Source: Myxococcota bacterium (lineage in GTDB: Bacteria; Myxococcota_A; UBA9160; UBA6930). Taken from it: a stretch of DNA of 64,000 nt. The stretch covers positions 4,512,001 through 4,576,000 of the forward strand of contig OZ245002.1 of the NCBI GenBank assembly GCA_965223415.1. Direction: 5' to 3'. The notes beneath the pieces were generated by a model. The model ran no database searches, had not been told where the DNA came from, and was given only the letters and a program-made list of their open reading frames with translations. Below are positions 4,629 through 23,563 of the stretch, piece after piece (the first letter of the stretch is position 1; each line of letters opens with the position of its first letter). Position numbers and translations under genes: made by a program.

Positions 4629-5477
4629 TCAGCGGAGCTGGATCTGGGGCGCGGCGACCGTGCCCCCCACGGCGATCTCGGCGCCGCCCCCCGCGTCCAG
4701 GCGGAATCCCTGCTGCTCGAGCATGCCCCGCAGGGAGGGGTCGACGTCCCGCATGAGGACCGTGAGGTCCAGGGCACCGGGTCGGCCCGCGCCGTCGAGG
4801 GCGAGGCTGCCGGCGGCCTCGAAGGACGCCAGGGGGCCTTGCAGGCTGCCCTGGTCCAGCGCGACCTGTCCGTCCTCGCCGAGCCGGAGCTCGGCCAGGA
4901 GGGTGTCGTAAGGAAGGGCGATCGGCAGGCTCGGCAGCGCCAGGCTCCCGTCGTTGCCCTTCACCGAGACCTCCCCGACCCAGAGGTGGCCCTGGCGTCG
5001 CACGTCCGATGCGCCGGAGAGGACGCCGTCCACCGGAAGCCCGTCGGGAGCCAGGGCCTCGGGGAGCGCTGCCGTGTCGATGCCGTCGAAGCGCCCGTCG
5101 AAGCCCGCCTCGCCCACGGGCCACACGGTGCCCACCACGGAGCCGCCGGCCAGCGCCAGCTCCACGCCGAGGGCGGGCTCGCCGGCCAGCCAGGACGTCG
5201 AGAGTGCCGGCCGCACACGCAGCCGCTCGAAGGCCAGGGGGCCGCGGCCCGGCACATGGACCACCAGGCCGTGGAGCACCGCCGCCGGTCCGGTGGCCGA
5301 CCAGCTGCCCTCGAGCCTCGCCAGCTCCATGCGCGTGCCCGTGGCCTGCTCGATCCGGCCGACCAGCCAGGGCGCGAGGCGCTCCCAGGGGAACTGGGCG
5401 ACGGCGAACATCAGGGTGAGGACCAGGCAGCCGGCCGCGATCGCCAGGCGGCGCAGCCAGCCCCCGCGCGGGCTCAC
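4629..5477 (-). CDS. gspN: Type II secretion system protein N
   Basis: GTG start overlaps the gspM stop; N-terminal TM then QFPWERL motif; beta-rich body; last gene of the gsp operon. Confidence 0.8.
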   Translation of the reverse strand: MSPRGGWLRRLAIAAGCLVLTLMFAVAQFPWERLAPWLVGRIEQATGTRMELARLEGSWSATGPAAVLHGLVVHVPGRGPLAFERLRVRPALSTSWLAGEPALGVELALAGGSVVGTVWPVGEAGFDGRFDGIDTAALPEALAPDGLPVDGVLSGASDVRRQGHLWVGEVSVKGNDGSLALPSLPIALPYDTLLAELRLGEDGQVALDQGSLQGPLASFEAAGSLALDGAGRPGALDLTVLMRDVDPSLRGMLEQQGFRLDAGGGAEIAVGGTVAAPQIQLR

Positions 5478-6028
5478 GACTCGATCGACTCGAAGGACGA
5501 GACCGTGAAGGTGACGTCCAGGAGCTCCGGCTTGTCGGCGCGGGTGCGAATGCGCAGGGTCTTGATGGAGAGCAGCTGGGCCGCCGACTCGATGCGGTGG
5601 AGGTAGTTCACGACCTGGGCGAGGGAGACGTTCTTCAGCACGACCTCGACCTTGGTCTCCTCGTAGGCATCGCTCGCCGCCGACTTGCGCGGCTCCATGG
5701 AGGCGACCTTGACGGCGCTCTCCCGCGCCAGCTCCTCCAGGGCGGTGAAGATCTCGCCGCGCGGCCCGGTGGTGATGCGGTCCCGCACCTGGCGCACCGG
5801 CGCCTCGATGCGGTCGTACTTGGCGCGCAAGGCGCGCACGGCCAGGAGCTGCTCCTCGGCCACCACGGCCCGGCGCCGGGCGTCGTCGGCCCAGCCGAGA
5901 GCCGGTGCGATCGCCAACAGGTAGAGGAGCGCCAGCGCCGCCGCGCCACCCGCGCCCCCGACCAGGAGCCGCTCCCGGCCCGAGAGCTCGCTCCAGGCGT
6001 CCTTCAACCGGTTCCACCAGGCCGTCAC
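5474..6028 (-). CDS. gspM: Type II secretion system protein M
   Basis: WSELSGRERLLV + TM + coiled coil + VEVVLKNVSLAQVVNYLHRIE; GTGA overlap with gspL stop. Confidence 0.85.
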   Translation of the reverse strand: MTAWWNRLKDAWSELSGRERLLVGGAGGAAALALLYLLAIAPALGWADDARRRAVVAEEQLLAVRALRAKYDRIEAPVRQVRDRITTGPRGEIFTALEELARESAVKVASMEPRKSAASDAYEETKVEVVLKNVSLAQVVNYLHRIESAAQLLSIKTLRIRTRADKPELLDVTFTVSSFESIES

Positions 6029-7590
6029 GGGGCCGCCTCCGGGGGCGCCAGGGAGATGCGCACGCTGAAGTTCGTGCCGCCCCTGCGTGTGTCGGTGGAG
6101 GCGTCGCCTACGGTGAGCTCGCGGAACAGAGCGGATTCGGTGAGCGCCTTCTCCAGCCGGTCCACGCCGCCGTACTCCGGGAGGTGTCCCTTGATCTGGA
6201 TCACCTGGCGGTCGATCGAGAGCTCCTCGAACACCACGCCCAGGTCCGGGGGCACGCGGCGGGAGAGCTCGGTCAGGATGTCGAGGGCGGAGAGATGGCC
6301 GCCGAAGACGCCGAGGGTGTCGGCTTCCTTCTCCACCTCGCGCAGGGCGCCTTGCAGGGCGGCCACCGGGTTGGAGGGGACGGCCCCGGGAAAGGCCTGG
6401 CTGTAGAGCTGCTGGGCCTCTGCCTCGGCACGCTGGGCGCGGCGTTCCTGGAGGAAGGCGTCGGTGCCGAGGGAGGCGCAGGCCAGGAGCAGGGCCAGGC
6501 CCCCGAGCAGCGCCGTGGGGCGCATCTCGCGGCTCATCTTGCGCAGGTCGACGCGCCGGGCGAACTCGTCCTTGCGGAAGTTCATCCGCGAGACGGCCTG
6601 GGCGCTGCCGCGCAGCGCCAGGGCGATGGCCGGGCCGAAGACCACTGGGTCGCCGCCGGCGAGGAGCGACGCACCCATCTCGCCCTTCGGCAGCGGCAGC
6701 CGGACGGTCTGCACCGAGGTGCGCTCGGAGAGGAAGCGGTCGAGCTCGTGGAGCCGGGCCGAGCCGCCCATCAGCACGATCTGGGGCGGGGACGGCGCCT
6801 CGCCGCCCTGCTCGAGCATCTCCTCCACCGAGCCCAGGGTGCGCAGCATCTCCCGGGCCAGACGGTCGATCACCTCGACGGCGCCGGGGCACTCGGCACG
6901 GCCGGCGCCGCCGAAGATGCCCTGCTCGATCTTGAGGCGCTCCGCCTCCAGATCGCCCAGGCCCCGATCTTTGGCGACGGCCCGGGTGATCGCCTCGCCG
7001 CCGACGGGCAGCGTGCGCGCGGCCACCGGGTGGCCGTCCAGGCACAGGCAGAGGGTCGTCTTGCGGTGACCGAGGTCGACCAGCAGGCGCGGTCCGGGCA
7101 GCTCGAAGGCGCTGGCCAGATTGGCGAGCACCAGGCCCTCGGCCTCGACGACGCGCACCTCGACGCCGGCCTCGTGCAGCATCTCGAGCAGCAGCGTCAC
7201 CTCGCTGCGGGGCGCCAGGGTGGCCGCCACCTCCGCGCGCTCCCTGCGCTCGGCCACCACCTCCCAGTCGACCACGAACTCGTCCAGGTCGAAGGGCACC
7301 TGGGCCTCCAGCTCGAAGGGCACGGCCGGGCCGATCTTGCGCTTGTCGCGGAAGGGGAAGGTGAGGCGCCGGCTGGAGACCCGGTCGCCGGCCAGGGCCA
7401 CCACCGCGCCGGTCTCCGGCAGGTCGTGGAGCTGCAGGAACTCGCGAATCTCGACGGCGAGAGACGGCGACGGATCGTCCAGGGGCAGCGTGCGCAGCTG
7501 CACGACCTCGAGATCGCGGAGCGTCTGGCGCAGCTCCACGGCCTTGATCGCGTGGCTTCCCAGGTCGAGCCCCAGGATGCGCCTGGCCAT
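6025..7590 (-). CDS. gspL: Type II secretion protein L (PilM-like actin-fold plus PilN-like [11 protein letters not shown] part)
   Basis: ILGLDLGSHAIKAVEL, LLVDLGHRKT and LMGGSARL actin-fold motifs, then a TM and PilN-like C-terminus; located between gspK and gspM. Confidence 0.85.
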   Translation of the reverse strand: MARRILGLDLGSHAIKAVELRQTLRDLEVVQLRTLPLDDPSPSLAVEIREFLQLHDLPETGAVVALAGDRVSSRRLTFPFRDKRKIGPAVPFELEAQVPFDLDEFVVDWEVVAERRERAEVAATLAPRSEVTLLLEMLHEAGVEVRVVEAEGLVLANLASAFELPGPRLLVDLGHRKTTLCLCLDGHPVAARTLPVGGEAITRAVAKDRGLGDLEAERLKIEQGIFGGAGRAECPGAVEVIDRLAREMLRTLGSVEEMLEQGGEAPSPPQIVLMGGSARLHELDRFLSERTSVQTVRLPLPKGEMGASLLAGGDPVVFGPAIALALRGSAQAVSRMNFRKDEFARRVDLRKMSREMRPTALLGGLALLLACASLGTDAFLQERRAQRAEAEAQQLYSQAFPGAVPSNPVAALQGALREVEKEADTLGVFGGHLSALDILTELSRRVPPDLGVVFEELSIDRQVIQIKGHLPEYGGVDRLEKALTESALFRELTVGDASTDTRRGGTNFSVRISLAPPEAAP

Positions 7591-7644
7591 GGATCGTCCC
7601 CTTCCATCTTCACCTTCCGCGCGCCCGGCTCCGGCCTCTCCGCG

Positions 7645-8676
7645 TCATCGAACGTCCCAGGCGAGCCAACGGGGCTGGGCCGGCTCGCTGCGGTCCACCC
7701 ACGCCGTCACCGTGCGCTGGATGTCACCGTAGCGGGCGATGGACTCGACGCGAAAGACGTCGGTCTGGAAGGTCGCGGGGGGGAAGACCGTCCCCTCGAC
7801 CGCCTGCTCGAGGGCCGTGCAGCGGGGGTCGGTCCCCTCTTCGCACAGCAGATCGCCGTCCTCCCGCAGCTCCAGGACGTCGCGGACGGTATCGGACACC
7901 GCGAAGCGGTAGTCGTCGCTCGTGCCGTGGAAGAGGAGCGCCAGGATCCAGGGCGGGGCGGTGTTGGGGTTGATGCCGTCGGCAGACGTGAGGGGATGCA
8001 CCGACACGTAGGGGCGAAGGGCCTCCACCAGGCGCGCGTCGAAGTCCTCGACGAGCGCCAGCTCGTCCACGGAGAGGAGCGGGCGGTTCGCCGCCCGGTA
8101 CGGGGGATCCTGCAGCTGGTAGTAGTCGTCCTCGAGGCCGCCGAAGATCCGCACGTCGTCCTCGTCCAGGTAGTCGAGGAGATTTCGGGCCAGCTCCTCG
8201 GCATCGTAGCTCCTCTCTTCGGCGCCCCCCGGAATCTCCTGGATGACCCGGTCGAGGAGCTCGGTCAGGAAGGGCTCCGCCATCTCGTCGCGGACCGCGC
8301 CGTCGGCGACGAGGGCGTTCAGGTTGAGCCGCGAGCCGGCGTCCTCGATGCGCAGCCGCAGCTCGCCGCCGTCGGTCACCCGGAGCGGCGCGGCGGCGAC
8401 CCGGGCCCAGAGCTCGTCGCGGGTCTCGGCCCGCAGCTCGTTCGCGGTCTCGTCCAGGCGATCCTGGATCAGGAGTGCCATGGCCAGGCGCACGCCCCCC
8501 CGGGCCAGGGCCTCGCAGCGGGCGGCGTAGTCCCGGTTGCGGGCGACCATCCCGTCGACGGTGGCCTTGCGCAGGAAGGTCGCGATGCCGGTGACCGCCA
8601 GCAGCACGAAGAACATCACTGCCACGAGCGCCAGGCCGGCGCGCCGCCTGTCGGGAGCGTGGCTCCGCACCGTCAT
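7645..8676 (-). CDS. gspK: Type II secretion minor pseudopilin K
   Basis: RRRAG|LALVAVMFF prepilin-like leader lacking E5; IEDAGSRLNLNAL and INPNTAP GspK motifs. Confidence 0.88.
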   Translation of the reverse strand: MTVRSHAPDRRRAGLALVAVMFFVLLAVTGIATFLRKATVDGMVARNRDYAARCEALARGGVRLAMALLIQDRLDETANELRAETRDELWARVAAAPLRVTDGGELRLRIEDAGSRLNLNALVADGAVRDEMAEPFLTELLDRVIQEIPGGAEERSYDAEELARNLLDYLDEDDVRIFGGLEDDYYQLQDPPYRAANRPLLSVDELALVEDFDARLVEALRPYVSVHPLTSADGINPNTAPPWILALLFHGTSDDYRFAVSDTVRDVLELREDGDLLCEEGTDPRCTALEQAVEGTVFPPATFQTDVFRVESIARYGDIQRTVTAWVDRSEPAQPRWLAWDVR

Positions 8677-9635
8677 TCGCAGCCCACCACGACGCTGGCG
8701 TCGATCTCGAGGGTGTCGGCCACGTCCAGGAAGCACTCGTCGGCCACCTGGGCGAAGAGCTCCGGGAAGCCCAGCGGGTCGGCGGCCTCCGCGGCGGCGA
8801 AGACCGGCTCGTTCTGGCCGCGACACTCGGCGACCGTCACGCACTCCTCGTCGGCGTCGTCCTCCGACGCGAGCTCCTCCGGCGAGAGGTCGAGGGGTCG
8901 CACCGGCAGCACGACCCGCCGGATGCTCGGCTCGGGCTCGTCGCCAAAGCCGGGCTCCGGGGCGTCCGGACCCTGCAGGGCCAGGCGCAGCTCGACCTGC
9001 ACGGGCAGCTCCCCCGCCCGCTCCAGGCCGATGGCCGAGTCCCAGCGATCGGTCCAGCTGCCCTCCTCGTCCTGGAGCCGCACCCCGAAGGAGGCCACGT
9101 TCTCGGCCAGGACCTGGACGCCCGGGTCGCCCCGGCGCGGGAAGCGCTGGTCGAGGCTCTCCGGAAGATGGGCCTCGGACCAGCGCAGGAGCTCGAGGGC
9201 CCGGCCCTCGTCGTCCCGGGCGGTGAAGTAGGCGACCACCGCCAGGTCCGACTCGCGGCGGGTGCTCGAGCGGGGCCGGTGGGCGCGGGTCTGGAACTTC
9301 AGCCGGTCGGCGCCGTCGCCGCCGCGGCTCTCCTCGGCCAGGAAGAACCAGGGGTGGGCCAGTCGCTCCAGCTCCGCCGGCTTCTTCACGAGCACGGTCT
9401 CCTGGAGCTCCCGCGCCAGGCGATCGAGGGTCAGCGCCGCGCGCCGCTCGTTCTCCGTGAGCGCCACGGCGGCGGCGCTCTGGCGGGAGATCTGGAGGTA
9501 GAAGTTGATGGCGAGGGTCATCACGATCACGGTGAAGAGCATCACGAACATCATCTCGATGAGGGTGAAGGCCTCATCGCGGACCCGGCGGCCCCGCCCG
9601 GTGAGAGGGCTCACGCGCGGGGTGAGGGGCGTCAC
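8673..9635 (-). CDS. gspJ: Type II secretion minor pseudopilin J
   Basis: EA|FTLIEMM N-methylation motif; C-terminal LPVQVELRL; operon position. Confidence 0.8.
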   Translation of the reverse strand: MTPLTPRVSPLTGRGRRVRDEAFTLIEMMFVMLFTVIVMTLAINFYLQISRQSAAAVALTENERRAALTLDRLARELQETVLVKKPAELERLAHPWFFLAEESRGGDGADRLKFQTRAHRPRSSTRRESDLAVVAYFTARDDEGRALELLRWSEAHLPESLDQRFPRRGDPGVQVLAENVASFGVRLQDEEGSWTDRWDSAIGLERAGELPVQVELRLALQGPDAPEPGFGDEPEPSIRRVVLPVRPLDLSPEELASEDDADEECVTVAECRGQNEPVFAAAEAADPLGFPELFAQVADECFLDVADTLEIDASVVVGCE

Positions 9636-10195
9636 TCGAGCTCTCCGGCGGGGTCGTCCGGGTCGACATCCGGATCGCCACCGGCCTGGGAGCTCGCGGT
9701 GGGCAGGTCCGCCGCGGCCGTCTGGGCGTCGAAGCCGAAGGTGGTGCGGCGCACCTCCTGGGTGTGGATGCCTTCCTTCCAGGTCACGGCGATCTCGATC
9801 TCGACTACCGGCGGCGTGGCGCCGAGCCCGTCGCCGGCGACCAGGCCCAGGGGAGGCCCCAGGTCCCGCCGATCGCCCAGCTCGAGGCCGAGGGTCGCCG
9901 GGTCGAGGGGGCGGGCTTCGAGCACAATGCCGAACTCCCCCTCGTCGAGGTTCTGCTGGCCGACCTGGGGAACGACGCCGCCCAGGAGCCCGGCCTCCAG
10001 GTCCGCCACGAGGCGGTCCGCCAGCAGCGAGGCGGCCAGGCGCCGGTGGGCGTCTCCCTCGAGCTGCATGCCGTCGACGGCGGCGCGGGTCAGCAGGGTC
10101 ACGACGATCCCGAGGGCGAGCACCGCCACCATCACTTCGAGCAGGGTGAAGCCCGGGTGCCGTACGTGGCCGGTTCTGCGCGCCGCCCTGCCCAT
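9632..10195 (-). CDS. gspI: Type II secretion minor pseudopilin I
   Basis: PG|FTLLEVMVA motif; VEIEIAVTW C-terminal strand; start taken at ATG 10195. Confidence 0.8.
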   Translation of the reverse strand: MGRAARRTGHVRHPGFTLLEVMVAVLALGIVVTLLTRAAVDGMQLEGDAHRRLAASLLADRLVADLEAGLLGGVVPQVGQQNLDEGEFGIVLEARPLDPATLGLELGDRRDLGPPLGLVAGDGLGATPPVVEIEIAVTWKEGIHTQEVRRTTFGFDAQTAAADLPTASSQAGGDPDVDPDDPAGELE

Positions 10196-10199
10196 CGCG

Positions 10200-10793
10200 T
10201 CAGCCGCCGAGCCGAGCGATGCGGATGCGATCGGCCATCGGCGAGAGCGAGAGCACGATTCGGTGGCCGGCCTCGGAGGTGAGCCAGACATCGGTGGCCT
10301 CGGAGCTGCCGTCCGCGGCGAAGGGCAGGGCCACCTGGCCCCGCTCCTCGCGGCCCGCTTCCGTCTCGATCGCTGCGAGCCAGACGCCGGCCGCGGGCGC
10401 ACGGGGGCGACCGGGCGGGCCCGGCGCCGGCAGGTAGAGGGCCTCGTCGCCGCGCGGCGCGGCCAGGGGCAGCTCCGAGAGCGCCGCCCAGCCCTCCACC
10501 GGCTCACCGGTCGCCACTTGCGGCGGGCTCAGGCTCTCCAGCCAGTAGCGCTGCGCGTCGAGGTCCACGACCACCCGCTGGGGCTGGCCGGTCATCACCG
10601 CGCGCTGGCGGCCGAACTCGAGCAGCGCCGCCAGGGATTCCGCTTCCTGGAGCGAGACGCGGCTGCCCCGCAGGCCCAGGTTCGGGATCGCCACGGCGGC
10701 GAGCAGCGCGATGAGCAGCGTCACCGCCACCAGCTCGATCAGCGTGAAGGCCCGCTCCAGGGCGCGGCGATGGCCGGAGCGGCGCGTCCTCAT
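10200..10793 (-). CDS. gspH: Type II secretion minor pseudopilin H
   Basis: RA|FTLIELVAV motif; ATG overlaps the gspG stop (ATGA). Confidence 0.82.
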   Translation of the reverse strand: MRTRRSGHRRALERAFTLIELVAVTLLIALLAAVAIPNLGLRGSRVSLQEAESLAALLEFGRQRAVMTGQPQRVVVDLDAQRYWLESLSPPQVATGEPVEGWAALSELPLAAPRGDEALYLPAPGPPGRPRAPAAGVWLAAIETEAGREERGQVALPFAADGSSEATDVWLTSEAGHRIVLSLSPMADRIRIARLGG

Positions 10794-11269
10794 CCGTTCT
10801 GGGACTCCCAGTTGCCGATGTCGGCGTTCGTGTCGCTGCCGCCGGGCTGGTTGTCCGCGCCGTAGGACCAGATGTCGTAGGTCTCCGGGTTGTGGGTCCC
10901 GGGCGCCTCGTACTGGAAGGCCTCGCCCCAGGCGTCCTTGGGCAGCGATTTGCTCGAGAGGTAGCCGCCGGGGCGGTAGTTGCGCGGCTCGGGCCCGGAG
11001 GCCGGGCGGGTCACCAGGGCCGAGAGGCCCTGCTCGCTGCTCGGGAAGCGGCCGTTGTCCATCTGGTAGAAGGCCAGGGCGCCCTCGATCTGCTTGATCT
11101 GGGTTCGGGTCGTCTCCATGCGGGCGACGTTGATGCGGTCGAACACGGCGGTTCCGACCAGGCCCATCAGCAGGGCCATGATCACGACCACCGCCATGAT
11201 CTCGATGAGCGAGAAGCCGCGCCGGCGCCGGGGGCGGGAGCGCTCGTGCGGGCGGAAGGGAGCGGGCAT
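10790..11269 (-). CDS. gspG: Type II secretion major pseudopilin G
   Basis: RG|FSLIEIMAVV; YQMDNGRFPSSEQGLSALV; PKDAWG; SYGADNQPGG...DIGNW. Confidence 0.96.
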   Translation of the reverse strand: MPAPFRPHERSRPRRRRGFSLIEIMAVVVIMALLMGLVGTAVFDRINVARMETTRTQIKQIEGALAFYQMDNGRFPSSEQGLSALVTRPASGPEPRNYRPGGYLSSKSLPKDAWGEAFQYEAPGTHNPETYDIWSYGADNQPGGSDTNADIGNWESQNG

Positions 11270-11281
11270 GGGAAGTCTCCT

Positions 11282-12526
11282 CTACTGGATCGAGCTCGTG
11301 AGCTCGAGAAGGGGCATCAGGGTCGAGAGCATGATCACCAGCACGACACCCACCATGATGAGGATCAGGAAGGGCTCGAGCAGCGCGGTGATGCGGGTGA
11401 CCGTGTTCTCCACCTGCTCTTCGTAGGTGTCGGCGACCTTGGCCAGCATGCCCTGGAGGTCGCCGCTGCGTTCGCCCACGTCGACCATGTGGGTGACCAG
11501 CGGTGGGAAGTGGCCACTCGCGCGCAGCGGTGCCGAGATGGAGGCGCCCTCGGTGATCGAGTTGCGCGCCTGCTCCACCGCGTCGCCGATCACCGTGTTG
11601 GCGGCCACGTGGCGCGAGATGTCCAGGGAGCGCACGATCGGGATGCCGCCGGCGAGGAGTGTCGCCAGGGTGCGCGTGAAGCGGGAGATGGCGAGCTGGC
11701 GGAAGATCTTGCCCATCAGCGGGACGCGGAGCAGCAGGCCGTCCCAGACGTGGCGGCCGCGCTCGGTGGCGATGAACGCGCGCAGGCCCGCCACCCCGGC
11801 GAAGAGCGCGAGGCCCACCGCCCACCACCAGGAGCGCAGGAACTCGGACATGTCGATGACCACGCGGGTGTAGATGGGCAGCGGCCGGTCGAGGCTCTCG
11901 AGCAGCTGGGTGATCTGGGGCAGCACGATCGTCACCAGCACCACCACGACCGAGACCGCGACCATCATCATCACCGCGGGATAGAGCAGGATCGAGACGA
12001 CCTTGTTGCGGGTGCGCACCTGCCCCTCGAGGTAGTCGGCCAGGCGGTCGAGGACCGTCTCGAGGGCGCCGCCGGTCTCGCCTGCCCGCACCATGCTCAC
12101 GTAGAGGTTGTTGAAGGGGCCGGCGGAGGCGAGGGCGTCCGCCAGGGTGGCGCCTTCGTTCACCCGATCGCGCACGATGCCGAGCAGGCTCTTCAGCCGG
12201 GCGTTCTCCACCTGCTCGGTGAGGGCGCCCAGGGATTCGACCAGCGGGATGCCGGCGCCGAGCAGGGTCGCGAGCTGGCGGGTGGCGATGGCGAGATCGG
12301 TTCCCGAGACACGGCGGAAGCTGGCATTCGCCCACAGGGCCGAGGCCGTGGGCCGCTCTCCACTGCCGGCCGCGGCCTTGGGGGCCGCGGCGCTCTCGGT
12401 GAGCTCCGTCAGGAAGACGCCGTCGCGCCGCAGCTTCTGGCGGGCGGTCCGGTCGCTGTCCGCGTCGACGAAGCCCTTCGTCGCGCGGCCGCCGTCGGTG
12501 ACGCCCTTGTACGCATAGACCGGCAC
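11282..12526 (-). CDS. gspF: Type II secretion inner membrane platform protein F
   Basis: TRQLATLLGAGIPL, YVSMVRAGETGGAL, GERSGDL, LLEP motifs. Confidence 0.96.
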   Translation of the reverse strand: MPVYAYKGVTDGGRATKGFVDADSDRTARQKLRRDGVFLTELTESAAAPKAAAGSGERPTASALWANASFRRVSGTDLAIATRQLATLLGAGIPLVESLGALTEQVENARLKSLLGIVRDRVNEGATLADALASAGPFNNLYVSMVRAGETGGALETVLDRLADYLEGQVRTRNKVVSILLYPAVMMMVAVSVVVVLVTIVLPQITQLLESLDRPLPIYTRVVIDMSEFLRSWWWAVGLALFAGVAGLRAFIATERGRHVWDGLLLRVPLMGKIFRQLAISRFTRTLATLLAGGIPIVRSLDISRHVAANTVIGDAVEQARNSITEGASISAPLRASGHFPPLVTHMVDVGERSGDLQGMLAKVADTYEEQVENTVTRITALLEPFLILIMVGVVLVIMLSTLMPLLELTSSIQ

Positions 12527-12572
12527 GCCGCTGGCCTCCCACTGGCTGGAGGGGGTGGTGTTGGAGGCGGCC

Positions 12573-14306
12573 TCAGGCCGCCGCCATCCCCTCCTCTTCC
12601 TCCGTGGCGCGCACCACCTCCTCGAGGGAGGTCACTCCCGCGAGCACCTTGCGCGCCCCGTCCATGCGCAGGGTCTGCATGCCCCCCTGCGCGGCCAGGC
12701 GCTTGATGGCCTTGGCGTCGACGTTCTGGGTCACGAGGTTGCGGATGGGGTCGTCCACGATCATCAGCTCGAAGATGCCGACCCGGCCCGCGTAGCCGGA
12801 GTCGTGGCACTGAGCGCAGCCGCCCGCGCGGTAGATCTCGACCGGTGCGTTCGCCTTGATGCCCACCTCCGCGAGCTCCTCGGGGGTGGGCTCGTAGGCC
12901 TGGCGGCAGTGCCGGCACAGCACGCGGACGAGACGCTGGGCGAGGACGGCGGAGAGGGACGAGGCCACGAGGTAGGCCTCGACGCCCATGTCGACGAGCC
13001 GGGTGATGGCGCTCGGCGCGTCGTTGGTGTGGAGGGTCGAGAAGACCAGGTGGCCGGTGAGCGAGGCCTGGATGGCGATCTCGGCGGTCTCGAGATCGCG
13101 GATCTCGCCGACCAGCACGATGTTCGGGTCCTGGCGCAGCACGGTGCGCAGGGCGCTGGCGAAGGTGAGGCCGATCTTCGGGCTCACCTCGATCTGGCTC
13201 ACGCCCGGCAGCTGGATCTCCACCGGGTCGTCGATGGTGATGATGTTGGACTCGGCGCTGTTCACCCGGGCCAGGGCGCCGTACAGGGTGGTCGTCTTGC
13301 CGCTGCCGGTCGGGCCGGTGACGAGGATGATCCCGTTGGGCCGCCGGATGAGGCGGTTCCAGATCTCGAGCTGCGCCTCGCCGAAGCCCAGGGCCTCGAG
13401 GTTGAGCATGTCGGAGGTGCGCGGCAGCAGCCGCAGCACCAGCCGCTCGCCGTGGGTGATCGGCACGGTCGAGAGCCGCACGTCGTAGTCGCGGCCGGCG
13501 ATCTTGAGGCGGATGCGGCCGTCCTGGGGCAGCCGCTTCTCGGCGATGTCGAGGCCGCCCATGATCTTGATGCGCGATACCACCGAGGGGAGCAGGGCCT
13601 TCGGCAGCGGGCTCACCGGCTCGTAGAGCACGTTGTCCACCCGGAACCGGACCCGGATCTCCTTCTCGTGGGGCTCGATGTGGATGTCGCTGGCGCGCTC
13701 CTTCACCGCCTGCTGCATCAGCGAGTCGACCAAGCGGATGATCGGCGCCTCGTCGTCGGAGTCGAGCAGGTCTTCCGGCTCCGCCGCGAGCTCGCTGGCC
13801 ACCGAGGCGAAATCGTCGGCGGCGTCCTCGAGGATCGCGTCGAGGGAGCCGGCGCCGCCGCGGTCGTAGACCTGGTTGATCGCGGTCATCACCGCGCGCT
13901 GGCCGACCAGCTCCGTCTCGATGGCAGCGCCGTCGAAGAGCAGCCGCAGGTCGTCGAGGCAGGCGGTGTCGTAGGGGTCCGACATGGCGACCCGCACCGA
14001 GCCGTCGTCGGCCCGGCCGATCGGCAGGAGGCCGTGGGCCTTGGCGAAGGAGATCGGCAGCTTCTCGACCAGGCCCTCGTCCACGTCGTCGGCGCTGATC
14101 GAGGGCCGCACCGGCAGGCCGAGCTGGGTGCCGATCGCCCCCAGCAGCTGATCCTCGCTGAGGAAGCCCAGCTCGAGCAGGTGCTCCGTGAGCTTGCCGC
14201 CCTCGTCCTGCTGGCGGCGCACCGCCTCCTCGAGCTGCTGGAGGGTGAGCGGGGTGGTCCGCAGCAGGACCTCCCGCAGCCCGAGGCGCTCGTCGATCGG
14301 ATTCAC
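12573..14306 (-). CDS. gspE: Type II secretion ATPase E
   Basis: ASDIHIEP, RLPQDGR, Walker A GPTGSGKT, LRQDPN, HTNDA, CxxC...CxxC. Start placed at GTG 14306 (GGAGAAG SD upstream); the ORF track extends it to 14333. Confidence 0.96.
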   Translation of the reverse strand: MNPIDERLGLREVLLRTTPLTLQQLEEAVRRQQDEGGKLTEHLLELGFLSEDQLLGAIGTQLGLPVRPSISADDVDEGLVEKLPISFAKAHGLLPIGRADDGSVRVAMSDPYDTACLDDLRLLFDGAAIETELVGQRAVMTAINQVYDRGGAGSLDAILEDAADDFASVASELAAEPEDLLDSDDEAPIIRLVDSLMQQAVKERASDIHIEPHEKEIRVRFRVDNVLYEPVSPLPKALLPSVVSRIKIMGGLDIAEKRLPQDGRIRLKIAGRDYDVRLSTVPITHGERLVLRLLPRTSDMLNLEALGFGEAQLEIWNRLIRRPNGIILVTGPTGSGKTTTLYGALARVNSAESNIITIDDPVEIQLPGVSQIEVSPKIGLTFASALRTVLRQDPNIVLVGEIRDLETAEIAIQASLTGHLVFSTLHTNDAPSAITRLVDMGVEAYLVASSLSAVLAQRLVRVLCRHCRQAYEPTPEELAEVGIKANAPVEIYRAGGCAQCHDSGYAGRVGIFELMIVDDPIRNLVTQNVDAKAIKRLAAQGGMQTLRMDGARKVLAGVTSLEEVVRATEEEEGMAAA

Positions 14307-14967
14307 GCGGGCTTCTCCACGGTCGTTCGACACCGCCGGCTCACTCTCCGTTCTCCACGATCGTTCGAACTCCGCCGGTCACTCTCCGTTCTCCACGATC
14401 GTTCGAACTCCGCCGGTCACTCTCCGTTCTCCACGATCGTTCGAACTCCGCCGGTCACTCTCCGTTCTCCACGATCGTTCGAACTCCGCCGGTCACTCTC
14501 CGTTCTCCACGATCGTTCGAACTCCGCCGGTCACTCTCCGTTCTCCACGATCGTTCGAACTCCGCCGGTCACTCTCCGTTCTCCACGATCGTTCGAACTC
14601 CGCCGGTCACTCTCCGTTCTCCACGATCGTTCGAACTCCGCCGGTCACTCTCCGTTCTCCACGATCGTTCGAACTCCGCCGGTCACTCTCCGTTCTCCAC
14701 GATCGTTCGAACTCCGCCGGTCACTCTCCGTTCTCCACGATCGTTCGAACTCCGCCGGTCACTCTCCGTTCTCCACGATCGTTCGAACTCCGCCGGTCAC
14801 TCTCCGTTCTCCACGATCGTTCGAACTCCGCCGGTCACTCTCCGTTCTCCACGATCGTTCGAACTCCGCCGGTCACTCTCCGTTCTCCACGATCGTTCGA
14901 ACTCCGCCGGTCACTCTCCGTTCTCCACGATCGTTCGAACTCCGCCGGTCACTCTCCGTTCTCCACG
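14303..14967. repeat. Perfect 38-bp tandem array: 16 identical units plus one degenerate unit and one partial unit
   Basis: Unit tcactctccgttctccacgatcgttcgaactccgccgg starts at 14341+38n through 14948; partial 14949-14967 is the true gspD 3' end; degenerate copy 14303-14340 carries the gspE start. No spacers. Confidence 0.97.
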
Positions 14968-17609
14968 GTGACGACCGGCGACATCTCGAAGCTCTGGCGC
15001 ATCACCTCCGCCGCCTCCTCGGCCTCCCCCAACTCGCCGAAGGGGCCGATCCGGATCTCGTAGAGCACGGTGCCGGAGCGGTCCTCGGTGACGAGGGCGC
15101 CGTCGTAGCCCGCGTCGATGAGCTGCTGGAGGGCGGCGGCGGCGGCACCTTCGTCGCCGAAGGTGGCGGCCAGCACCCCGTAGCGCTTGCCCCCGTCGAC
15201 CTGGGCCTGGGCGGCGGCCTGCTGGCGGGCCTCGCGCTCCCGGCGCTCGATCTCGCGCATCTGGTCCACGGGGTAGCGGTCGCGATGCTCGACGAGGCGC
15301 CCCCGCACCGGGTTCTTGCCCTTGAAGGGCGTCATCGAGATGCCCGCCGCCTCGGCCTCCTCGCGGCGCTCCTTCGCCTGGCGCTTCTCCTTGTCGGTGA
15401 GCCGCAGGGCCTTCTCGCTCGACTCCCAGAACTCCTCGCGCTTGCGGATCGTCTCGGTGGCGAGCTCGGCCTCGTTGCGGACGATGTGGGGCGTCAGGAA
15501 GACGAGCAGGTTCACCTTGCGCACGTCCTCGTCGGTGGTCTTGAACAGCCAGCCCAGGATCGGGATGTCGCCGAGCCAGGGCACCTTGGTCTCGATGTCG
15601 CCCTGGTTCTCGTCGATCAGCCCGCCGATCACGACCGTCTCGCCGTCGCCGACCACCACCACGTTCTCGATCTTCCGGTTCGAGAGCGCCACGCCGACCT
15701 CTTCCGCGGAGCCGGTCTGGGCGGTGAGGCCCGCGTTGATGTCCGTGATCTCCTGGAAGATCTTGAGGCGCAGGCTCTCGCCTTCGGAGATCTGGGGCGT
15801 CACCCGCAGGGTGATGCCGATGTCCTGGCGCTCGATGTTCTGGCTCGTGGCGAGGCCGCCGGTGCTCTGGCCCGCCGCCGACTCCACGCGACTGGTGACG
15901 ATCGGGATGTTGTTGCCGACCTTGATCTCCGCCTCCTCGTTGTCGAGGGTGAGCACGTGGGGGGCGGAGAGGATGTTCGTGCTGGTGAGGGAGGCGCTGG
16001 CGCGGATGATGCCCTGGATGAGGGAGCCGCTGAAGAGAGGATTGCCAAAGCCGTCTGTGGCCTGCTCGAGGGCGCCGGTCGCCAGGCCGGTCATCGGATC
16101 GAGGGCCGGCACCATGACCTGTGACACCGTGCTCCGGGTGGCTGCGGCAAAGAGGCTGCTCAGAATCGAGTTGCCCAGGGTTCCAGCGCCGGTATCCGTT
16201 GTGCCGCCGTTCCCGTCCGTCGTCGACGAACCGAAGACGTTCGGAACCGCTCCGCTATCCGTGACTGAACCCAGCGCATAGCTCGTGTTGCCCCGGAAGA
16301 TCCGACCGAAGCCGTTGAAGCCGAGGTCCCGCGCGTCGGTGACATCGACCTCCATGATCAGCGCCTCGACCAGCACCTGGGGCCGGGCGATGTCGAGCTG
16401 GGCGATCACCTGGGCGAGGGTGTCGTAGCCCTCCCGGGTCGCCTGGATGACGAGCGAGTTGGTCGGCGCGTCCGCCGTCACGGTGACGCCGTCGGCCAGC
16501 TCGGTGATGGCGGCCCGCAGGGCCGGGTTCGCCGCCACGCCGCCCACCGCCGCGGCGCCGCCCGGCGAGGCCGGCGGCTGGCCGCCGATCAGGGTGGAGA
16601 GGGTGGTCGCCAGCTCCTCGGCGTCCGCGTGCCTCAGGTAGTAGACGTGGATGCGCCCGCCGCCGGTCACCGGCACGTCGAGGCGCTGGATCACCTCGCG
16701 GATCTCCGCCACCCGCTGGCGGGAGGCGAGGACGATCAGCGAGTTCGTGCGCTCGTCGGTGATCAGCCGGACCCGACCCTTGGGGGCGCCGACGTTGGCG
16801 GCCGCCTGGACGGCCTGGGGAGTGCGCCGGGCGCGGGCCCGGGCCACGGGCTGGCCGGTAGCGCTGGTCACCTCGGCTTCGAAGATCTCGGAGAGCTGGG
16901 CCGCGAGGGTGGTCGCGTCCGCGTGCCGCACCTGGATGACCGTCAGCTCCTCCTTGTAGGTCTCCACGTCGATCGACTGGAGGATGGAGAGGATGCGCCG
17001 GATGTTGGAGGCCGAGTCCGTGAGGATCACCGTGTTGGTGGGCGGGTAGGCCACCATCGAGGCGTCCTTCGAGACCAGCGGCTTCACCGTGTTGGTGATG
17101 GCCTCGGCGTCGATGAAGCGAAGGGGGATGAGCCGCGTGATGAAGCGGTCGCTCTTCGGCGTGGCCGCGCGACCGCGAACGGTCTCGACGTTGCTCTCCT
17201 TGGCCTCGCGGATCGGAATCACCTTGATCGCGCCGCCCGGCGTCTCCACCGTGGTGAAGCCCTTCACCTGGAGGACGGACTCGAAAACCGCGTAGGCCTC
17301 CTCGCGGGTGATCTTGGTGGGCGAGACGATCGTGACGCGCCCGCGCACCCGATCGTCGTAGATGAAGTTCTTGTTCGTGAGGCGAGCGATGGTGTCGATC
17401 ACGACCGAGAGCTCGACGTCGGTGAAGTCGAGCTGCACGTGGCCGTTGTCGGTGGTGAGGCCGTCTTCCGGCGGGGCCTGGGCGGCGGCACCGCCGGCCA
17501 GGAGGATCAGGAGCAAGGCGACGACGCCACGGTGCAGCAGCGAACGCATCCGCCCGGGGCCTTCCATCTTCGAAACCAGCGGTCGCATCAGCGTGGGACT
17601 CCCCATCAT
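14949..17609 (-). CDS. gspD: Type II secretion secretin D with C-terminal SPOR-like domain
   Basis: LDFTDVEL...NFIYDDRVRGRVTIVSP (N0); QVLVEALIMEV; ILSAPHVLTLDNEEAEIKVG; KVPWLGDIPILGWLF; NLLVFLTPHIV. Start uncertain (17609 by ATGA overlap, or 17549). Confidence 0.95.
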   Translation of the reverse strand: MMGSPTLMRPLVSKMEGPGRMRSLLHRGVVALLLILLAGGAAAQAPPEDGLTTDNGHVQLDFTDVELSVVIDTIARLTNKNFIYDDRVRGRVTIVSPTKITREEAYAVFESVLQVKGFTTVETPGGAIKVIPIREAKESNVETVRGRAATPKSDRFITRLIPLRFIDAEAITNTVKPLVSKDASMVAYPPTNTVILTDSASNIRRILSILQSIDVETYKEELTVIQVRHADATTLAAQLSEIFEAEVTSATGQPVARARARRTPQAVQAAANVGAPKGRVRLITDERTNSLIVLASRQRVAEIREVIQRLDVPVTGGGRIHVYYLRHADAEELATTLSTLIGGQPPASPGGAAAVGGVAANPALRAAITELADGVTVTADAPTNSLVIQATREGYDTLAQVIAQLDIARPQVLVEALIMEVDVTDARDLGFNGFGRIFRGNTSYALGSVTDSGAVPNVFGSSTTDGNGGTTDTGAGTLGNSILSSLFAAATRSTVSQVMVPALDPMTGLATGALEQATDGFGNPLFSGSLIQGIIRASASLTSTNILSAPHVLTLDNEEAEIKVGNNIPIVTSRVESAAGQSTGGLATSQNIERQDIGITLRVTPQISEGESLRLKIFQEITDINAGLTAQTGSAEEVGVALSNRKIENVVVVGDGETVVIGGLIDENQGDIETKVPWLGDIPILGWLFKTTDEDVRKVNLLVFLTPHIVRNEAELATETIRKREEFWESSEKALRLTDKEKRQAKERREEAEAAGISMTPFKGKNPVRGRLVEHRDRYPVDQMREIERREREARQQAAAQAQVDGGKRYGVLAATFGDEGAAAAALQQLIDAGYDGALVTEDRSGTVLYEIRIGPFGELGEAEEAAEVMRQSFEMSPVVTVENGE

Positions 17610-18490
17610 CGAATCTCGTACTGGAGCTGACGGACCTGCCCGTCGCGTCCCGTGACGGTGACGCTGAATTGCTGAGAGGTCGAGAGCTCGCTCAGCACCT
17701 GTGCACTCTCCTGCTGGCCCGTCACCTGGATTCCGTTGAACTCGGTGATGGTGTCGCCGTCCTGGATGCCGATCTGCTGGAAGAGGCTCCCCGCCTTGAT
17801 CGCGTTCAGCTGCACGCCCACCATCTGTCCGTTCTCATACTTCGGCAGGATGCGGGCCTGAGAGAAGAGGGCGGCGGGATTGTTCGCCACGCTGTTCACG
17901 TCCTGGCGCTCGACGGCGAAGCGGTTCTCGGCCAGCTGCTCGACCTGCGGGTTGCGGGCGGGCCGGGCGCGGGGTCGCGCGCGGGCGGTCCGGCGAGCCG
18001 GGCGCGTCGATTTGCCCCCGTTCTCCTCCTTGAGGGCGAGCTCCTCGCGGCGGGGCCCGTTCTGGAGGACGATGCGGCGGCGCTCGATGCGCAGCACGTC
18101 CGCGCGACCCTTGAGCCGGTCGCCCACCCGCACGACCAGATGGGTGCGGGTCTCCAGGTCCTCGACCGCGGCCCAGGAGAGTGCCGTGTCCTCGTGGGCG
18201 GCGGTGCCGAGGAGCTCCAGCGGGAGCTTCGTCTTGGCGTACTTCTCCTCCTCCGTCGGTGGCGGAGCCGTGGGCGCAAGGGTGGAGGCGTTGAAGGGGT
18301 TGCGGCTGATGATGATCTGGCGCGCGTCCCAGCTCCGGTCCGTCGGAGGGATCGGGATGGGCTGGACGTGGGCGGCGCCGGCCGCGGGCTCCAGCACCGA
18401 GCCGGACACGGCGGCGATCACCCGTGCCGCGAAGAAGCAGCAGGCCGCCACCAGGGCGACGTTGATGCCGAGGATCAGCGCGCGGCTCAC
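17606..18490 (-). CDS. gspC: Type II secretion protein C with PDZ domain
   Basis: N-terminal TM, TKLPLELLGT HR domain, C-terminal PDZ (GSLFQQIGIQDGDTITEFNG). Confidence 0.9.
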   Translation of the reverse strand: MSRALILGINVALVAACCFFAARVIAAVSGSVLEPAAGAAHVQPIPIPPTDRSWDARQIIISRNPFNASTLAPTAPPPTEEEKYAKTKLPLELLGTAAHEDTALSWAAVEDLETRTHLVVRVGDRLKGRADVLRIERRRIVLQNGPRREELALKEENGGKSTRPARRTARARPRARPARNPQVEQLAENRFAVERQDVNSVANNPAALFSQARILPKYENGQMVGVQLNAIKAGSLFQQIGIQDGDTITEFNGIQVTGQQESAQVLSELSTSQQFSVTVTGRDGQVRQLQYEIR

Positions 18491-18579
18491 GCGGCGCCCT
18501 CGTTCGTGCCGGTCATGCCCACGGTACCCCTCCGCTCGGCTCGGCCCGGGGCGGCGCTGCCACCCCCAGGGAACGGCCG

Positions 18580-18608
18580 AGTATATCGCCCCGGGCCGCC
18601 GTCTCCAA
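18580..18608 (-). promoter_or_regulatory. Candidate sigma70 promoter of gsp operon
   Basis: Minus strand TTGGAG-N17-TATACT, about 90 bp upstream of gspC. Confidence 0.5.
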
Positions 18609-18750
18609 GCCGGTTTCCTCGCAATTCCGGGGGGTTATCGCGTCTACCGCGCGTGCTCTCGGTGATCGGGTTCACACCCTCGGCGATTCGATGCCCGCGC
18701 CACCCGGGAGGTTCCCCGGGCCACTTCCCGAGACGAGATCGACCGTGTCC

Positions 18751-19161
18751 ATGCCGCCTCTCCGCACCCTCCGTTGGCTCCTCCCCGCCTCCGCCGCGGG
18801 GCTGGCGGCGGGCGTCGGTTTGGGGGCGTTCCTGCTGCTGGGCCCGGTCCTGCTCGACGTCCAGGCGCCCGCCGGCGCCGCGACCGTGGGGCTCGAGGGG
18901 GTGGAGGTGTTCCTGCGCTTCGACGCGGAGCGCACCCGCCACGCCACCTTCCGGGCGCTCCTGAACGGCGCCGACGTCACCGACGAGCTGGAGGTGGCCC
19001 CGAACGGTGTCCACGGCTCCCTCCACGGCCTCCTCCACGGCGACAACGAGCTGCGTTTCGAGGTCTACGGCGAGGGCTACTGGCCCCCGGATCTCCTGGT
19101 CGAGGAGACCCGCAGCTACTCGATCCGCTACCGCCCACCCCTCGACCTCGACCGCGGATGA
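18751..19161 (+). CDS. Hypothetical membrane-anchored/exported protein (small beta-sandwich-like)
   Basis: Host-like codon usage; N-terminal hydrophobic segment; LNGADVT...[12 protein letters not shown]. Confidence 0.65.
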
Positions 19162-19264
19162 AGTAAACGGGGCTGGCCCCCTTCTGTTCCCCCGGGGGCA
19201 TCTTGACGGGGGGCGGCTGGGGACCAGGCTTCGCGGGCACATCTGCGAGGAGGCCTGCAGGGAC

Positions 19265-21175
<1,911 letters not shown>

Positions 21176-21181
21176 GCCCCC

Positions 21182-23563
21182 TTGGACGAGCTCGAAGCCA
21201 CGAGCCCGGAGGTCGCGCAGGAGGTCGGCGAGCTGCCGGGCGACCTGCCCATCCTGCCGCTCAAGAACACGGTCATCTTCCCGCACCTGCTGGCACCGCT
21301 ACTGGTCAACACGGAGCGCTCGAAGACGTTGATCGACGCGGTCCTCGCCGACCCGGATCGGCTGATGATGAGCGTCGCGGTCAACCGGCCGCTCGAGGGA
21401 AGTCCGCGCACGGAGGATCTCCACCGCACCGGCACCGTGCTTCGCATCGTGAAGATGCTGAAGTTCCCGGACGACTCCTACCGGCTGCTGGTCCAGGGGG
21501 CGGGCCGGGCCCGCGTGACCGAGTTCCTCGACGAGGACCCGTTCTTCCGCGGCCGCATCGAGGACCTGAAGGACCACGGGGACGCGACCTCCGTCGAGGC
21601 CCTGGCGCTGACCCGCGAGGTGCGGGACCAGTTCGTGGGCCTGGTCTCCGAGTCGAGCCGGCTCTCGGACGAGCTCCAGGTGCTGGCGATGAACGTCGAG
21701 GAGCCGGCGCGGCTTGCGGACCTGGTCGCTTCGAACCTCGATCTCGACATCGCCGGCAAGCAGGCCTTCCTGGAAGAGCTCGACGTGGTGGCCCGCCTGC
21801 ACCGCGCCCGCGACGAGCTGCGCCGCGCCGGCGACGCGATCCAGATCGAGAGCGAGATCCGCGAGAAGGTCCAGAGCGAGATGGGGCGCAGCCAGCGGGA
21901 GTACATGCTGCGCCAGCAGCTCGACCACATCCGCAAGGAGCTGGGCGAGGCCGAGGACGAGGAGGCCGAGGCCGACGTCCTGCGCGACAAGATCGAGGCG
22001 GCGCGGATGCCCGAGGAGGCCGAGAAGCAGGCCCTCCGGGAGCTCGAGCGTCTGGAGCAGACCCCCACCGCCTCCGCCGAGCACGGCGTGATCCGCACCT
22101 ATCTCGAGTGGATGGTCGATCTCCCGTGGAGCCAGACCAGCGAAGACCAGCTCTCCGTCGAGGAGGCCCGGTGCGTCCTCGACGAGGACCACTTCGGCCT
22201 CGAGAAGGTGAAAGACCGCATCGTCGAGTACATCGCCGTGCTCTCCCTGAAGCGCGACCTGCGCGGGCCGATCCTGTGCTTCGTGGGCCCGCCGGGCACG
22301 GGCAAGACCTCACTCGGCCGGTCGATCGCCCGGGCGCTCGGCCGCCAGTTCGAGCGCATCTCCCTGGGCGGCGTGCGGGACGAGGCGGAGATCCGCGGCC
22401 ATCGCCGCACCTACGTGGGAGCGCTGCCCGGGCGGGTCGTCCAGGGCATGCGCCGCGCCGGGACGCGCAACCCGGTGTTCCTCCTCGACGAGGTGGACAA
22501 GGTGGGCGCCGACTACCGGGGCGATCCTTCGTCGGCGCTCCTCGAGGTGCTCGATCCGGAGCAGAACAGCACCTTCAGCGACCACTACCTGGAGGTCCCC
22601 TTCGACCTGTCCCAGGTGCTCTTCATCGCCACGGCCAACCAGATGGAGCCGGTGCCCGCCGCCCTCCAGGACCGCATGGAGGTGATCGAGCTGCCCGGCT
22701 ACACGGAGGAGGACAAGGTCGAGATCGCCCGCCGTTTCCTGATCCCCCGCCAGCGGGAGGCCAACGGCGTGGCGGAGATCGACCTGCGCATCAGCGACGA
22801 CGCCGTGCGCACGGTGATCCGCAGCTACACCCGCGAGGCTGGCGTGCGGAACCTGGAGCGCGAGCTCGGCAAGCTCTGCCGCAAGGTCGCGCGTCGGGTC
22901 GCCGAGGGCCAGCTGGCCGAGGGCGAGGCGTCGGTGATCGACGCCCCGGACCTGGCGGAGCTGCTCGGGCCGATCCGCTTCGAGCCGGAGCTGGCGGAGC
23001 GCACCGGGCAGCCCGGCGTGGCTGTGGGCCTGGCCTACACGCCGGCGGGAGGCGACATCCTGTTCGTCGAGAGCACCCAGATGCCCGGCCGCGGGGGGCT
23101 CAAGCTGACCGGCTCCCTCGGCGACGTGATGCGGGAGTCTGCCGAGGCCGCGCGCACCTGGCTCCAGGCCCGGGCCGAGCAGTTCGAGCTCGACCGGGAG
23201 GCCTTCGAGAAGCGCGACTTCCACCTGCACGTGCCCGCGGGCGCCGTGCCCAAGGACGGGCCCTCGGCCGGCGTCGCCATGGTCACCTCCCTGGCCTCCC
23301 TGATGCTCGGGCGGCCCGCCGCACCGGAAGTGGCGATGACCGGCGAGATCACCCTGCGCGGCAAGGTGCTGCCCGTGGGCGGCATCAAGGAGAAGGTGCT
23401 GGCGGCCAAGCGCTCGGGCATCCGCCGGGTCGTGCTCCCGGAGCGCAACCGGCGCGACGTGGAGGAGATCCAGCCGGAGCTGCTCAAGGGCCTCGAGTTC
23501 GACTACGTTTCGGCGATCGATGAGGCCCTCGATCGGATCCTGCTTCCCGCCGCGGCGGACTGA
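21182..23563 (+). CDS. lon: ATP-dependent Lon protease (paralog 1)
   Basis: [14 protein letters not shown]-domain, [37 protein letters not shown]. Confidence 0.97.

Follow-up and report, generated by a model that had tools for sequence, protein, structure and literature searches.

The type II secretion (T2SS) operon of the Myxococcota bacterium with assembly GCA_965223415.1 carries a large tandem-repeat array between gspD, which codes for the secretin, and gspE, which codes for the ATPase. We analyzed this array in a 64-kb stretch of contig OZ245002.1 (positions 4,512,001 to 4,576,000; G+C content 71.9%), which is designated as the window and to whose first letter all positions below refer. 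Tandem Repeats Finder (TRF) places a single array at 14313–14967, between gspD and gspE, with a period of 38 nucleotides (nt), 17.2 copies, 99% matches and a score of 1280, and this array is by a wide margin the largest in the window. The features at the locus, in the order of transcription, are as follows (L009 and L019 are related loci described below).

4629..18490, minus strand: T2SS operon gspC-D-(array)-E-F-G-H-I-J-K-L-M-N (Pfam and junction sequences)
14949..17609, minus strand: gspD, secretin, 886 residues, with a C-terminal SPOR domain (Pfam Secretin, Secretin_N, GspD N0 and SPOR)
14959..14967, minus strand: upstream seed CGTGGAGAA in the gspD 3' end, at the upstream array boundary on the mRNA strand (sequence, TRF limit and alignment)
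14345..14952, minus strand: 16 identical 38-nt units, each reading GTG, 12 codons and TGA and encoding MTGGVRTIVENGE (sequence)
14303..14344, minus strand: divergent 17th mini-ORF, encoding MSRRCRTTVEKPA before its stop (sequence; alignment with the L009 and L019 junctions)
14313..14321, minus strand: downstream seed CGTGGAGAA in the divergent unit, at the downstream array boundary on the mRNA strand (sequence and TRF limit)
12573..14306, minus strand: gspE, ATPase, 577 residues from GTG 14306 (Pfam T2SSE and MshEN)

A chain of overlapping mini-ORFs between gspD and gspE

The 650 nt at 14303–14952 on the minus strand consist of 16 identical 38-nt units and one divergent unit, arranged head to tail with no spacers between them. 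Each of the 16 units is identical to the 38-mer (0 mismatches), and shuffled versions of the window gave 0 matches; the 38-nt repeat itself is far beyond chance. GTGA occurs on the minus strand at 14952, 14914 and onward to 14344 and 14306 at a spacing of exactly 38 nt, and each unit forms a small open reading frame (mini-ORF) that shares a 4-nt GTGA overlap with its neighbor, giving 18 overlaps in register across the chain. The first GTG overlaps the gspD TGA (14951–14949), the last 19 nt of gspD (14949–14967) being already part of the first repeat copy, while the final TGA, that of the 17th mini-ORF, is overlapped by the gspE GTG at 14306. The motif GGAG, a Shine-Dalgarno (SD) sequence, lies 8 nt upstream of every GTG in the chain, that of gspE included, and this distance is within the range of 6–11 nt observed for SD-like motifs at the other starts of the operon. 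An earlier note on this DNA had described the region as a chain of 17 translationally coupled 13-codon mini-ORFs, 16 identical and one divergent, that begins on the gspD stop, has GTGA and GGAG at each junction and hands over to the gspE GTG; this anatomy proved exact on the minus strand.

The start and stop signals of the region are restricted in kind. The mRNA strand of 14303–14952 contains 36 GTG, 0 ATG and 0 TTG; 17 of the GTGs are the starts of the 13-codon ORFs, another 17 are internal to these ORFs and in their frame, and two (14333 and 14306) are in the gspE frame. TGA is the only stop trinucleotide and occurs 18 times, and every one of the 36 starts either reaches the next TGA or enters gspE in frame. 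Initiation anywhere in 14303–14952 thus cannot run out of frame into gspE. The alternative in-frame GTG at 14333 would extend GspE to 586 residues; in L009 and L019, the conserved start is the GTG that matches 14306.

The composition of the unit (16 G, 10 A, 7 C and 5 T) makes the RNA G-rich and C-poor. Among the third codon positions of the mini-ORF, 9/13 are G or C, as opposed to a fraction of about 0.89–0.97 in the genes of the window, which argues that the unit has not been shaped as a coding sequence. The last six residues of the unit peptide are identical to the GspD C-terminus. GGA occurs three times per unit, or approximately 51 times in 650 nt, and is accounted for by the SD sequence and by Glu and Gly codons copied from gspD. 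The chain as such follows from duplication of a GTGA junction with a unit length of 2 mod 3, for which the chance is one in three.

Junctions in related loci and the selection for bridges

To place the array in its lineage, species-representative genomes were scanned with GspD: 468 stretches matched, 389 of them encode relatives, and the best 80 were kept, yielding 74 loci. All are from uncultured bacteria, mostly labeled Myxococcota or Deltaproteobacteria, and the genome of the window is not among them. The gspD/gspE junction is present in 64 of the 74 loci and absent from the other ten; the best-matching locus, L007 (88% over a gspD fragment), lies on a contig that stops short of the junction. 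In 58 of the 64 junctions, the gspD stop and the gspE start overlap directly by 4 nt (ATGA or GTGA). In four others, one mini-ORF spans the junction, opening on the gspD stop and closing on the gspE start (hereafter, a bridge), and only two (L055 and L059) have a TAG or TAA gspD stop followed by an ordinary spacer. Overlap or bridge is therefore retained in 62 of the 64 junctions. The bridges are the following.

L001: bridge of 2 codons, period 5
L019: bridge of 11 codons, period 32
L031: bridge of 11 codons, period 32
L009: bridge of 12 codons, period 35

None of the 64 related junctions has an array, and in the 611,809 bases of related loci, tandem repeats with a period of 15 or more reach 4.4 copies at most. 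Relatives with a protein identity of at least 80% have one unit each. Judged from these junctions, the 17-fold iteration is unique to the genome of the window.

In a FastTree tree of GspD and GspE, the window forms one clade with L009 and L019 (Shimodaira–Hasegawa-like support of 100), its two nearest relatives, both of which carry a single bridge. L001 adjoins a locus of the overlap type, L031 lies within an overlap-type clade, and L055 and L059 group together. As reconstructed on this tree, the NTGA overlap is the ancestral gspD/gspE junction of the lineage and the bridges in the four loci represent three independent origins: the ancestral overlap would have been lost four times, and in three of these cases a bridge with a period of 2 mod 3 took over. 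Within the clade of the window, the bridge length varies by multiples of three alone (32, 35 and 38). The peptides encoded by the bridges of the relatives (MNHAPSDSESAR, MNRAKPIENLR, MIAASGNGGNT and MT) are unrelated, indicating that the frame is kept and not the product.

The earlier note had cautioned that a 2 mod 3 unit arises by chance in one case out of three, and had proposed to compare the lengths in related junctions. The caution holds for any single duplication. All four bridge periods (5, 32, 32 and 35) are, however, 2 mod 3, and such a bridge is present in every related junction where the direct overlap was lost but a start codon still overlaps the TGA (4 of 4). For three junction-duplication events with a frame chance of 1/3 each, the arithmetic gives approximately 0.04, a figure that in-frame length changes lower further. 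The relatives thus add evidence that the frame class is not accidental.

A wider survey paired neighboring coding ORFs on the same strand across the window and the 74 loci; it was restricted to non-overlapping pairs and based on a crude filter of ORFs and third-position G+C content. Where the upstream stop was overlapped by ATG, GTG or TTG, the resulting mini-ORF ended exactly on the in-frame downstream start in 12 of 18 pairs, whereas control stops not overlapped by a start codon (CTGA, NTAG and NTAA) showed the same bridging geometry in 18 of 126 (one-sided Fisher p = 6.8e-6). When all rows from L001, L009, L019 and L031 were removed, the count was 8/14 (p = 7e-4). These p-values are indicative only, given the roughness of the gene calls and the separate counting of orthologous junctions from related loci. 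The survey points to bridges being generally favored at junctions, and hand-over of ribosomes by one unit is a plausible and probably selected feature. The overlaps or bridges in 62 of the 64 relatives and the enrichment also give indirect support to a dependence of gspE on upstream translation. The three independent bridge replacements, along with this enrichment, suggest that the operon junctions of this uncultured lineage are shaped by selection to keep translation uninterrupted.

Three further mini-ORFs of this kind were noted in the window. At 57477–57509 (plus strand), a bridge of 10 codons leads from an upstream TGA to the ATG of the next gene at 57506 (MILITGGAG...), and at 60085–60150 (plus strand), one of 21 codons leads to the ATG at 60147 (MTEETLAY...). 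The third, at 7610–7648 (minus strand), is a counter-example: a 12-codon ORF, MTRRGRSRARGR, begins with an ATG on the gspK stop and ends in GTGA, and the GTG of this tetranucleotide (7613) is out of the frame of gspL, whose ATG is at 7590. Mini-ORFs of the form NTGA...NTGA can thus arise without bridging.

Origin of the array and possible consequences for gspE

The repeat unit is chimeric. Its 3' 19 nt are the end of gspD with the stop, and its 5' part is similar to that of the divergent unit, apart from a few substitutions and two 1-nt indels that compensate each other. The divergent unit can be aligned to the L009 and L019 bridges, from which it differs in length by 3 and 6 nt; by this alignment, it is the counterpart of the single bridge of these relatives. 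The base just before the seed is T in the internal units and C in both flanks, indicating that one variant copy was amplified. Outside the array, the unit occurs 0 times in the window and 0 times in the 74 related loci, and on this ground a dispersed repeat family was rejected as its source.

These features suggest the following course of events. The NTGA overlap would have given way, in the common ancestor that the window shares with its two nearest relatives, to a single bridge of approximately 11–13 codons running from the gspD stop to the gspE start. The two copies of CGTGGAGAA, located 38 nt apart in the gspD end and in the bridge, may then have mediated a duplication by slipped-strand mispairing or unequal crossover. 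The old bridge would thus have been followed by a first inter-seed duplication, by some divergence and finally by a recent run-away expansion or homogenization to 16 identical copies. We consider it rather likely that the array is a junction-derived minisatellite, recent and tolerated, whose high copy number is neutral or slightly costly, and not an evolved device. The expansion would be tolerated because a unit of 2 mod 3 that itself contains an SD, a GTG and a TGA preserves the conserved continuity of stops and starts at any copy number. An architecture of coupled repeat ORFs can accordingly arise locally by junction duplication, with no mobile element.

Several points weigh against this assessment. 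The number of units, and even the presence of more than a few, is that of the assembled sequence and may not be right. The enrichment of bridges implies that coupling matters, and a 17-step chain could have a selected quantitative effect. The perfection of the 16 units could reflect selection or homogenization instead of recency, and the translation of the mini-ORFs is deduced from their sequence. Moreover, the absence of the unit elsewhere covers the 64-kb window and the 74 loci, and the rest of the genome may carry a dispersed family.

How the chain would act on gspE depends on re-initiation. According to PMC12548453, coupled genes are most often spaced as NTGA, coupling works efficiently between −4 and +3 nt, and the next gene can be supplied with a ribosome by a short ORF; the coupling mechanism is characterized there as not firmly established. 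Ribosomes that terminate on gspD would probably re-initiate at the first GTG and be passed from unit to unit with a loss at each step, new 30S subunits may load at the SD of each unit, and gspE would still be translated, mainly through initiation in the last units. We described the flux by the recursion f(n+1) = e × f(n) + d, where e is the hand-over efficiency and d is the fresh initiation per unit. It converges to d/(1 − e) within a few units at moderate e and more slowly as e approaches 1. With d = 0, a fraction of 0.15 is left after 18 junctions at e = 0.9 and less than 0.002 at e of 0.7 or below. Given this convergence, gspE output at 17 units would be set by initiation in the last units, with hardly any coupling to gspD, and the gain or loss of a few units would barely matter; this speaks against a graded rheostat at such a copy number. 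Provided that the array is real, it offers a natural series of 18 consecutive −4 nt junctions of identical sequence, convenient for gauging both the processivity of re-initiation and the fresh initiation at each step.

The earlier note had proposed a ribosome relay with copy number as a rheostat. In its selected form, the 17 mini-ORFs would pass ribosomes from the secretin gene to the ATPase gene, and slippage would set the ratio of GspC-D (the outer-membrane module) to GspE-N (the inner-membrane machinery) heritably, reversibly and gradedly, or else the spacer would be kept translated to protect the mRNA. The intact chain over 18 junctions, with an SD at operon-typical spacing in every unit, agrees with such a relay, as do the overlaps and bridges of the relatives and the enrichment over control stops. 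Perfect 38-nt repeats should also change in number easily, as is established for tandem repeats, and Borg repeats vary within populations (PMC9879509). However, the array is found in none of the 64 related junctions, the related loci contain no tandem repeat of more than 4.4 copies, and gspE has its own GGAG and GTG. Because convergence is geometric, 8 and 17 units would give nearly equal output, and if fresh initiation were nil, coupling would be almost lost. RNA that is G-rich and C-poor is a poor substrate and loading site for Rho, so that translation of the array is not obviously needed against polarity. A selected relay or rheostat is thus improbable in our estimation; what stands of the proposal is the one-unit hand-over, which the bridges and their enrichment make plausible, whereas the 17-fold version has no parallel in the relatives and the rheostat is not supported, output past a few units being independent of unit number unless fresh initiation is zero. 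If a selected relay did exist, it would be a frame-safe contingency locus that tunes coupling strength with no on/off switching, and stop-start continuity would filter which junction duplications survive in these genomes. The note had also suggested a multi-copy peptide that mimics the GspD C-terminus, and more generally the 13-residue peptide, encoded 16 times, could be a functional product. A high molar yield could indeed be reached with as many as 16 identical ORFs, each with an SD, and the six shared C-terminal residues fit a mimic. That identity is, however, a trivial by-product of duplication, the peptide sequence is not conserved among the bridges of the relatives, third-position G+C is low, and there is neither a signal peptide nor a context of modifying enzymes; we regard such a peptide as scarcely credible.

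An assembly artefact would reduce the array to one or a few real units, with a short tandem duplication over-expanded by the assembler. Sixteen identical copies (608 nt) are longer than short reads, which could not fix their number, repeats are a known source of assembly error (PMC9879509), and no relative has the array. On the other hand, the same paper describes the collapse of repeats and contig breaks, the reverse of over-expansion. The array moreover lies within an uninterrupted 64-kb stretch with intact genes on either side, the seeds at its boundaries are what true slippage would be expected to leave, one base sets the internal units apart from both flanks, and smaller, real-looking junction duplications occur elsewhere in the window. 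We therefore judge an artefact to be unlikely. The array may instead act without translation, either as a sponge or standby site in which GGA or GGAG motifs bind 30S subunits or an RNA-binding regulator, or as an internal promoter. The density of GGA and the largely unstructured centroid predicted for the array RNA would suit the former, and promoter activity of the senX3-regX3 intergenic region, which contains mycobacterial interspersed repetitive units (MIRUs), would suit the latter (PMC4213456). Against both, the array contains no promoter-like match and its best Rfam score is 26.7 bits versus a gathering score of 48, and the GGA motifs follow from the SD and from codons inherited from gspD. 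We know of no partner protein for the array. A role of this type is very unlikely.

Other readings of the repeat were also examined. In folding against shuffled sequences, no segment was notably more stable: the whole array gave z = −2.18 with an unstructured centroid, three units gave z = −0.91 as RNA and −1.18 and +0.55 as DNA, and the gspE start region gave z = −0.26. A structured RNA or DNA element was rejected, given folds near those of the shuffles and no Rfam family at threshold within the array; across the window, the sole match at gathering level is a tRNA at 29788–29872. An internal promoter or terminator was rejected since neither had a match in the array. The units abut without unique spacers, which rules against a CRISPR array, and the anatomy does not fit iterons or a peptide precursor. 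The plus strand is open across the array, the 16-unit block having neither start nor stop codon on that strand. A 291-residue plus-strand ORF (14188–15063) matched no protein at E <= 0.001 among candidates of 160–510 residues; a plus-strand gene was rejected on this result and on the lack of a start codon in the 16-unit block.

The array can be compared with known systems, of which MIRUs are the closest. They are short repeats that apparently insert at start codons, and the ORF of the unit is coupled to the gene at −4 nt; they appear to be mobile and occur in many mycobacteria (Brown and Wade, PMC12548453). The senX3-regX3 spacer contains, depending on the strain, three 77-bp units or two 77-bp units and one of 53 bp (PMC4213456). 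Both lengths are 2 mod 3, like 38. MIRUs are reportedly dispersed over many loci and measure approximately 46–101 bp, as Supply et al. are said to have described in 1997. Like MIRUs, the gspD–gspE repeats are tandem and direct (17.2 copies here), lie between two genes of one operon and contain a unit ORF with a −4 nt overlap to the flanking gene or the next unit (18 GTGA overlaps here). Unlike MIRUs, the unit shows no sign of being interspersed or mobile in the window and the 74 loci, its only occurrence there being the array; its 38 nt derive from its own flanks, its copies are identical in 16 cases, its starts are GTG, and its context is a Myxococcota secretion operon. The array is hence a MIRU analogue and not a member, and the principle of coupled repeat ORFs has been known since MIRUs were described. 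Our literature search, for which most subscription journals were out of reach, found no junction-derived chain of coupled mini-ORFs besides MIRUs.

The chain also has the NTGA overlap with an upstream SD that characterizes termination-reinitiation pairs. Likewise, it resembles delivery ORFs (natural upstream ORFs and synthetic bicistronic designs), in which a short ORF holds the SD of the next start and its stop overlaps that start. Such an ORF supplies the downstream gene with a ribosome, and the arrangement has found use in biotechnology (PMC12548453). Known delivery ORFs are single, whereas 17 are chained here and the cumulative efficiency of 18 hand-overs matters. In the perfection of its units, its flanking seeds and its lineage specificity, the array is similar to the repeats of Borg elements, inferred to be recent and fast-evolving (PMC9879509). 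Those repeats are A-rich, archaeal, extrachromosomal and genome-wide; ours are G-rich and form one large array in 64 kb of a bacterial chromosome-like context. As in contingency loci, a slippage-prone repeat is placed where expression could be affected. Classical contingency loci have units of 1–7 nt, the number of which switches the frame or the promoter spacing on and off. Here, in contrast, the frame relations are the same at every copy number and there is no promoter match; an on/off switch is thus not possible.

Other duplications and genes of the window

Four further tandem duplications, smaller than the array, lie in the window at the start or end of a gene or next to it, implying that junction duplication is common in this genome.

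4501–4565, minus strand: 33 nt x 2.0 (TRF; local period 32), in the start region of a gene for an ArsR helix-turn-helix/S-adenosylmethionine methyltransferase
24399–24473, plus strand: 33 nt x 2.3, directly after the TGA of an OmpA-family gene (23340–24398)
29665–29744, plus strand: 31 nt x 2.6, copying the last codons (...DGGWTIV) and the TAG of an ORF that ends at 29686
38679–38762, plus strand: 31 nt x 2.7, copying the last codons and the TAG of the upstream gene (gene end 38697)

The first of these creates an 11-codon upstream ORF (4539–4504, minus strand; period 32), the TGA of which is overlapped by the real ATG at 4507, and thus has the ATGA...ATGA geometry of a bridge, as in the array. 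The repeat at 29665–29744 lies approximately 45 nt upstream of the tRNA mentioned above. That at 38679–38762 has a period of 1 mod 3 and precedes a DAHP-synthase gene, whose open frame matches Pfam from residue 57 onward. A perfect 14-nt repeat in three copies (ACCCACCACCCAAG) was also noted at 27710–27751 (plus strand), near the boundary of two plus-strand ORFs.

In related operons, in-frame repeats of 39, 45 and 51 nt in about three copies are located just before the GFTLIE-type prepilin motif of pseudopilin genes, and in L005 an identical 39-nt unit is present in two genes. Repeats seem to persist where reading frames stay unbroken.

L005 9668–9776 and 10302–10411: in-frame pseudopilin repeats
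L056 9888–10036: in-frame pseudopilin repeat
L003 7807–7966: in-frame pseudopilin repeat

Most junctions of the gspC–N operon have 4-nt ATGA or GTGA overlaps. The six named in the earlier note beyond the array were all found: C/D, G/H and J/K overlap by ATGA, and I/J, L/M and M/N by GTGA. Pfam matches back gspC, D, E, F, G, J, K, L and M, while the labels gspH and gspI are based on prepilin motifs alone, and a Pfam search with the candidate gspN returned no significant family. The remaining features of the operon are listed below; downstream of gspG, the pseudopilin genes, gspJ, K, L, M and the candidate gspN extend as far as 4629.

18580..18607, minus strand: sigma-70-like promoter match upstream of gspC (1 site versus a shuffle mean of 0.1)
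17606–18490, minus strand: gspC (Pfam)
11282–12526, minus strand: gspF (Pfam)
10790–11269, minus strand: gspG (Pfam)

The match at 18580..18607 is the sole sigma-70-like one near the operon. The SPOR domain of GspD, which is peptidoglycan-binding, corresponds to 14949–15190 (minus strand; Pfam E = 2.6e-07), and the C-terminal 200 residues of GspD can be aligned in 64 of the 74 related loci. Upstream of the operon, dnaK and lon are encoded on the opposite strand. The dnaK gene (19007–21175, plus strand) matches HSP70 with E = 9e-264, and a minus-strand ORF antisense to it (18977–21286), despite a strong Pfam NAD-GH match (E = 8e-180), is almost certainly not a gene. The 326-residue ORF at 18487–19467 (minus strand), upstream of gspC, is likewise of doubtful standing as a gene.

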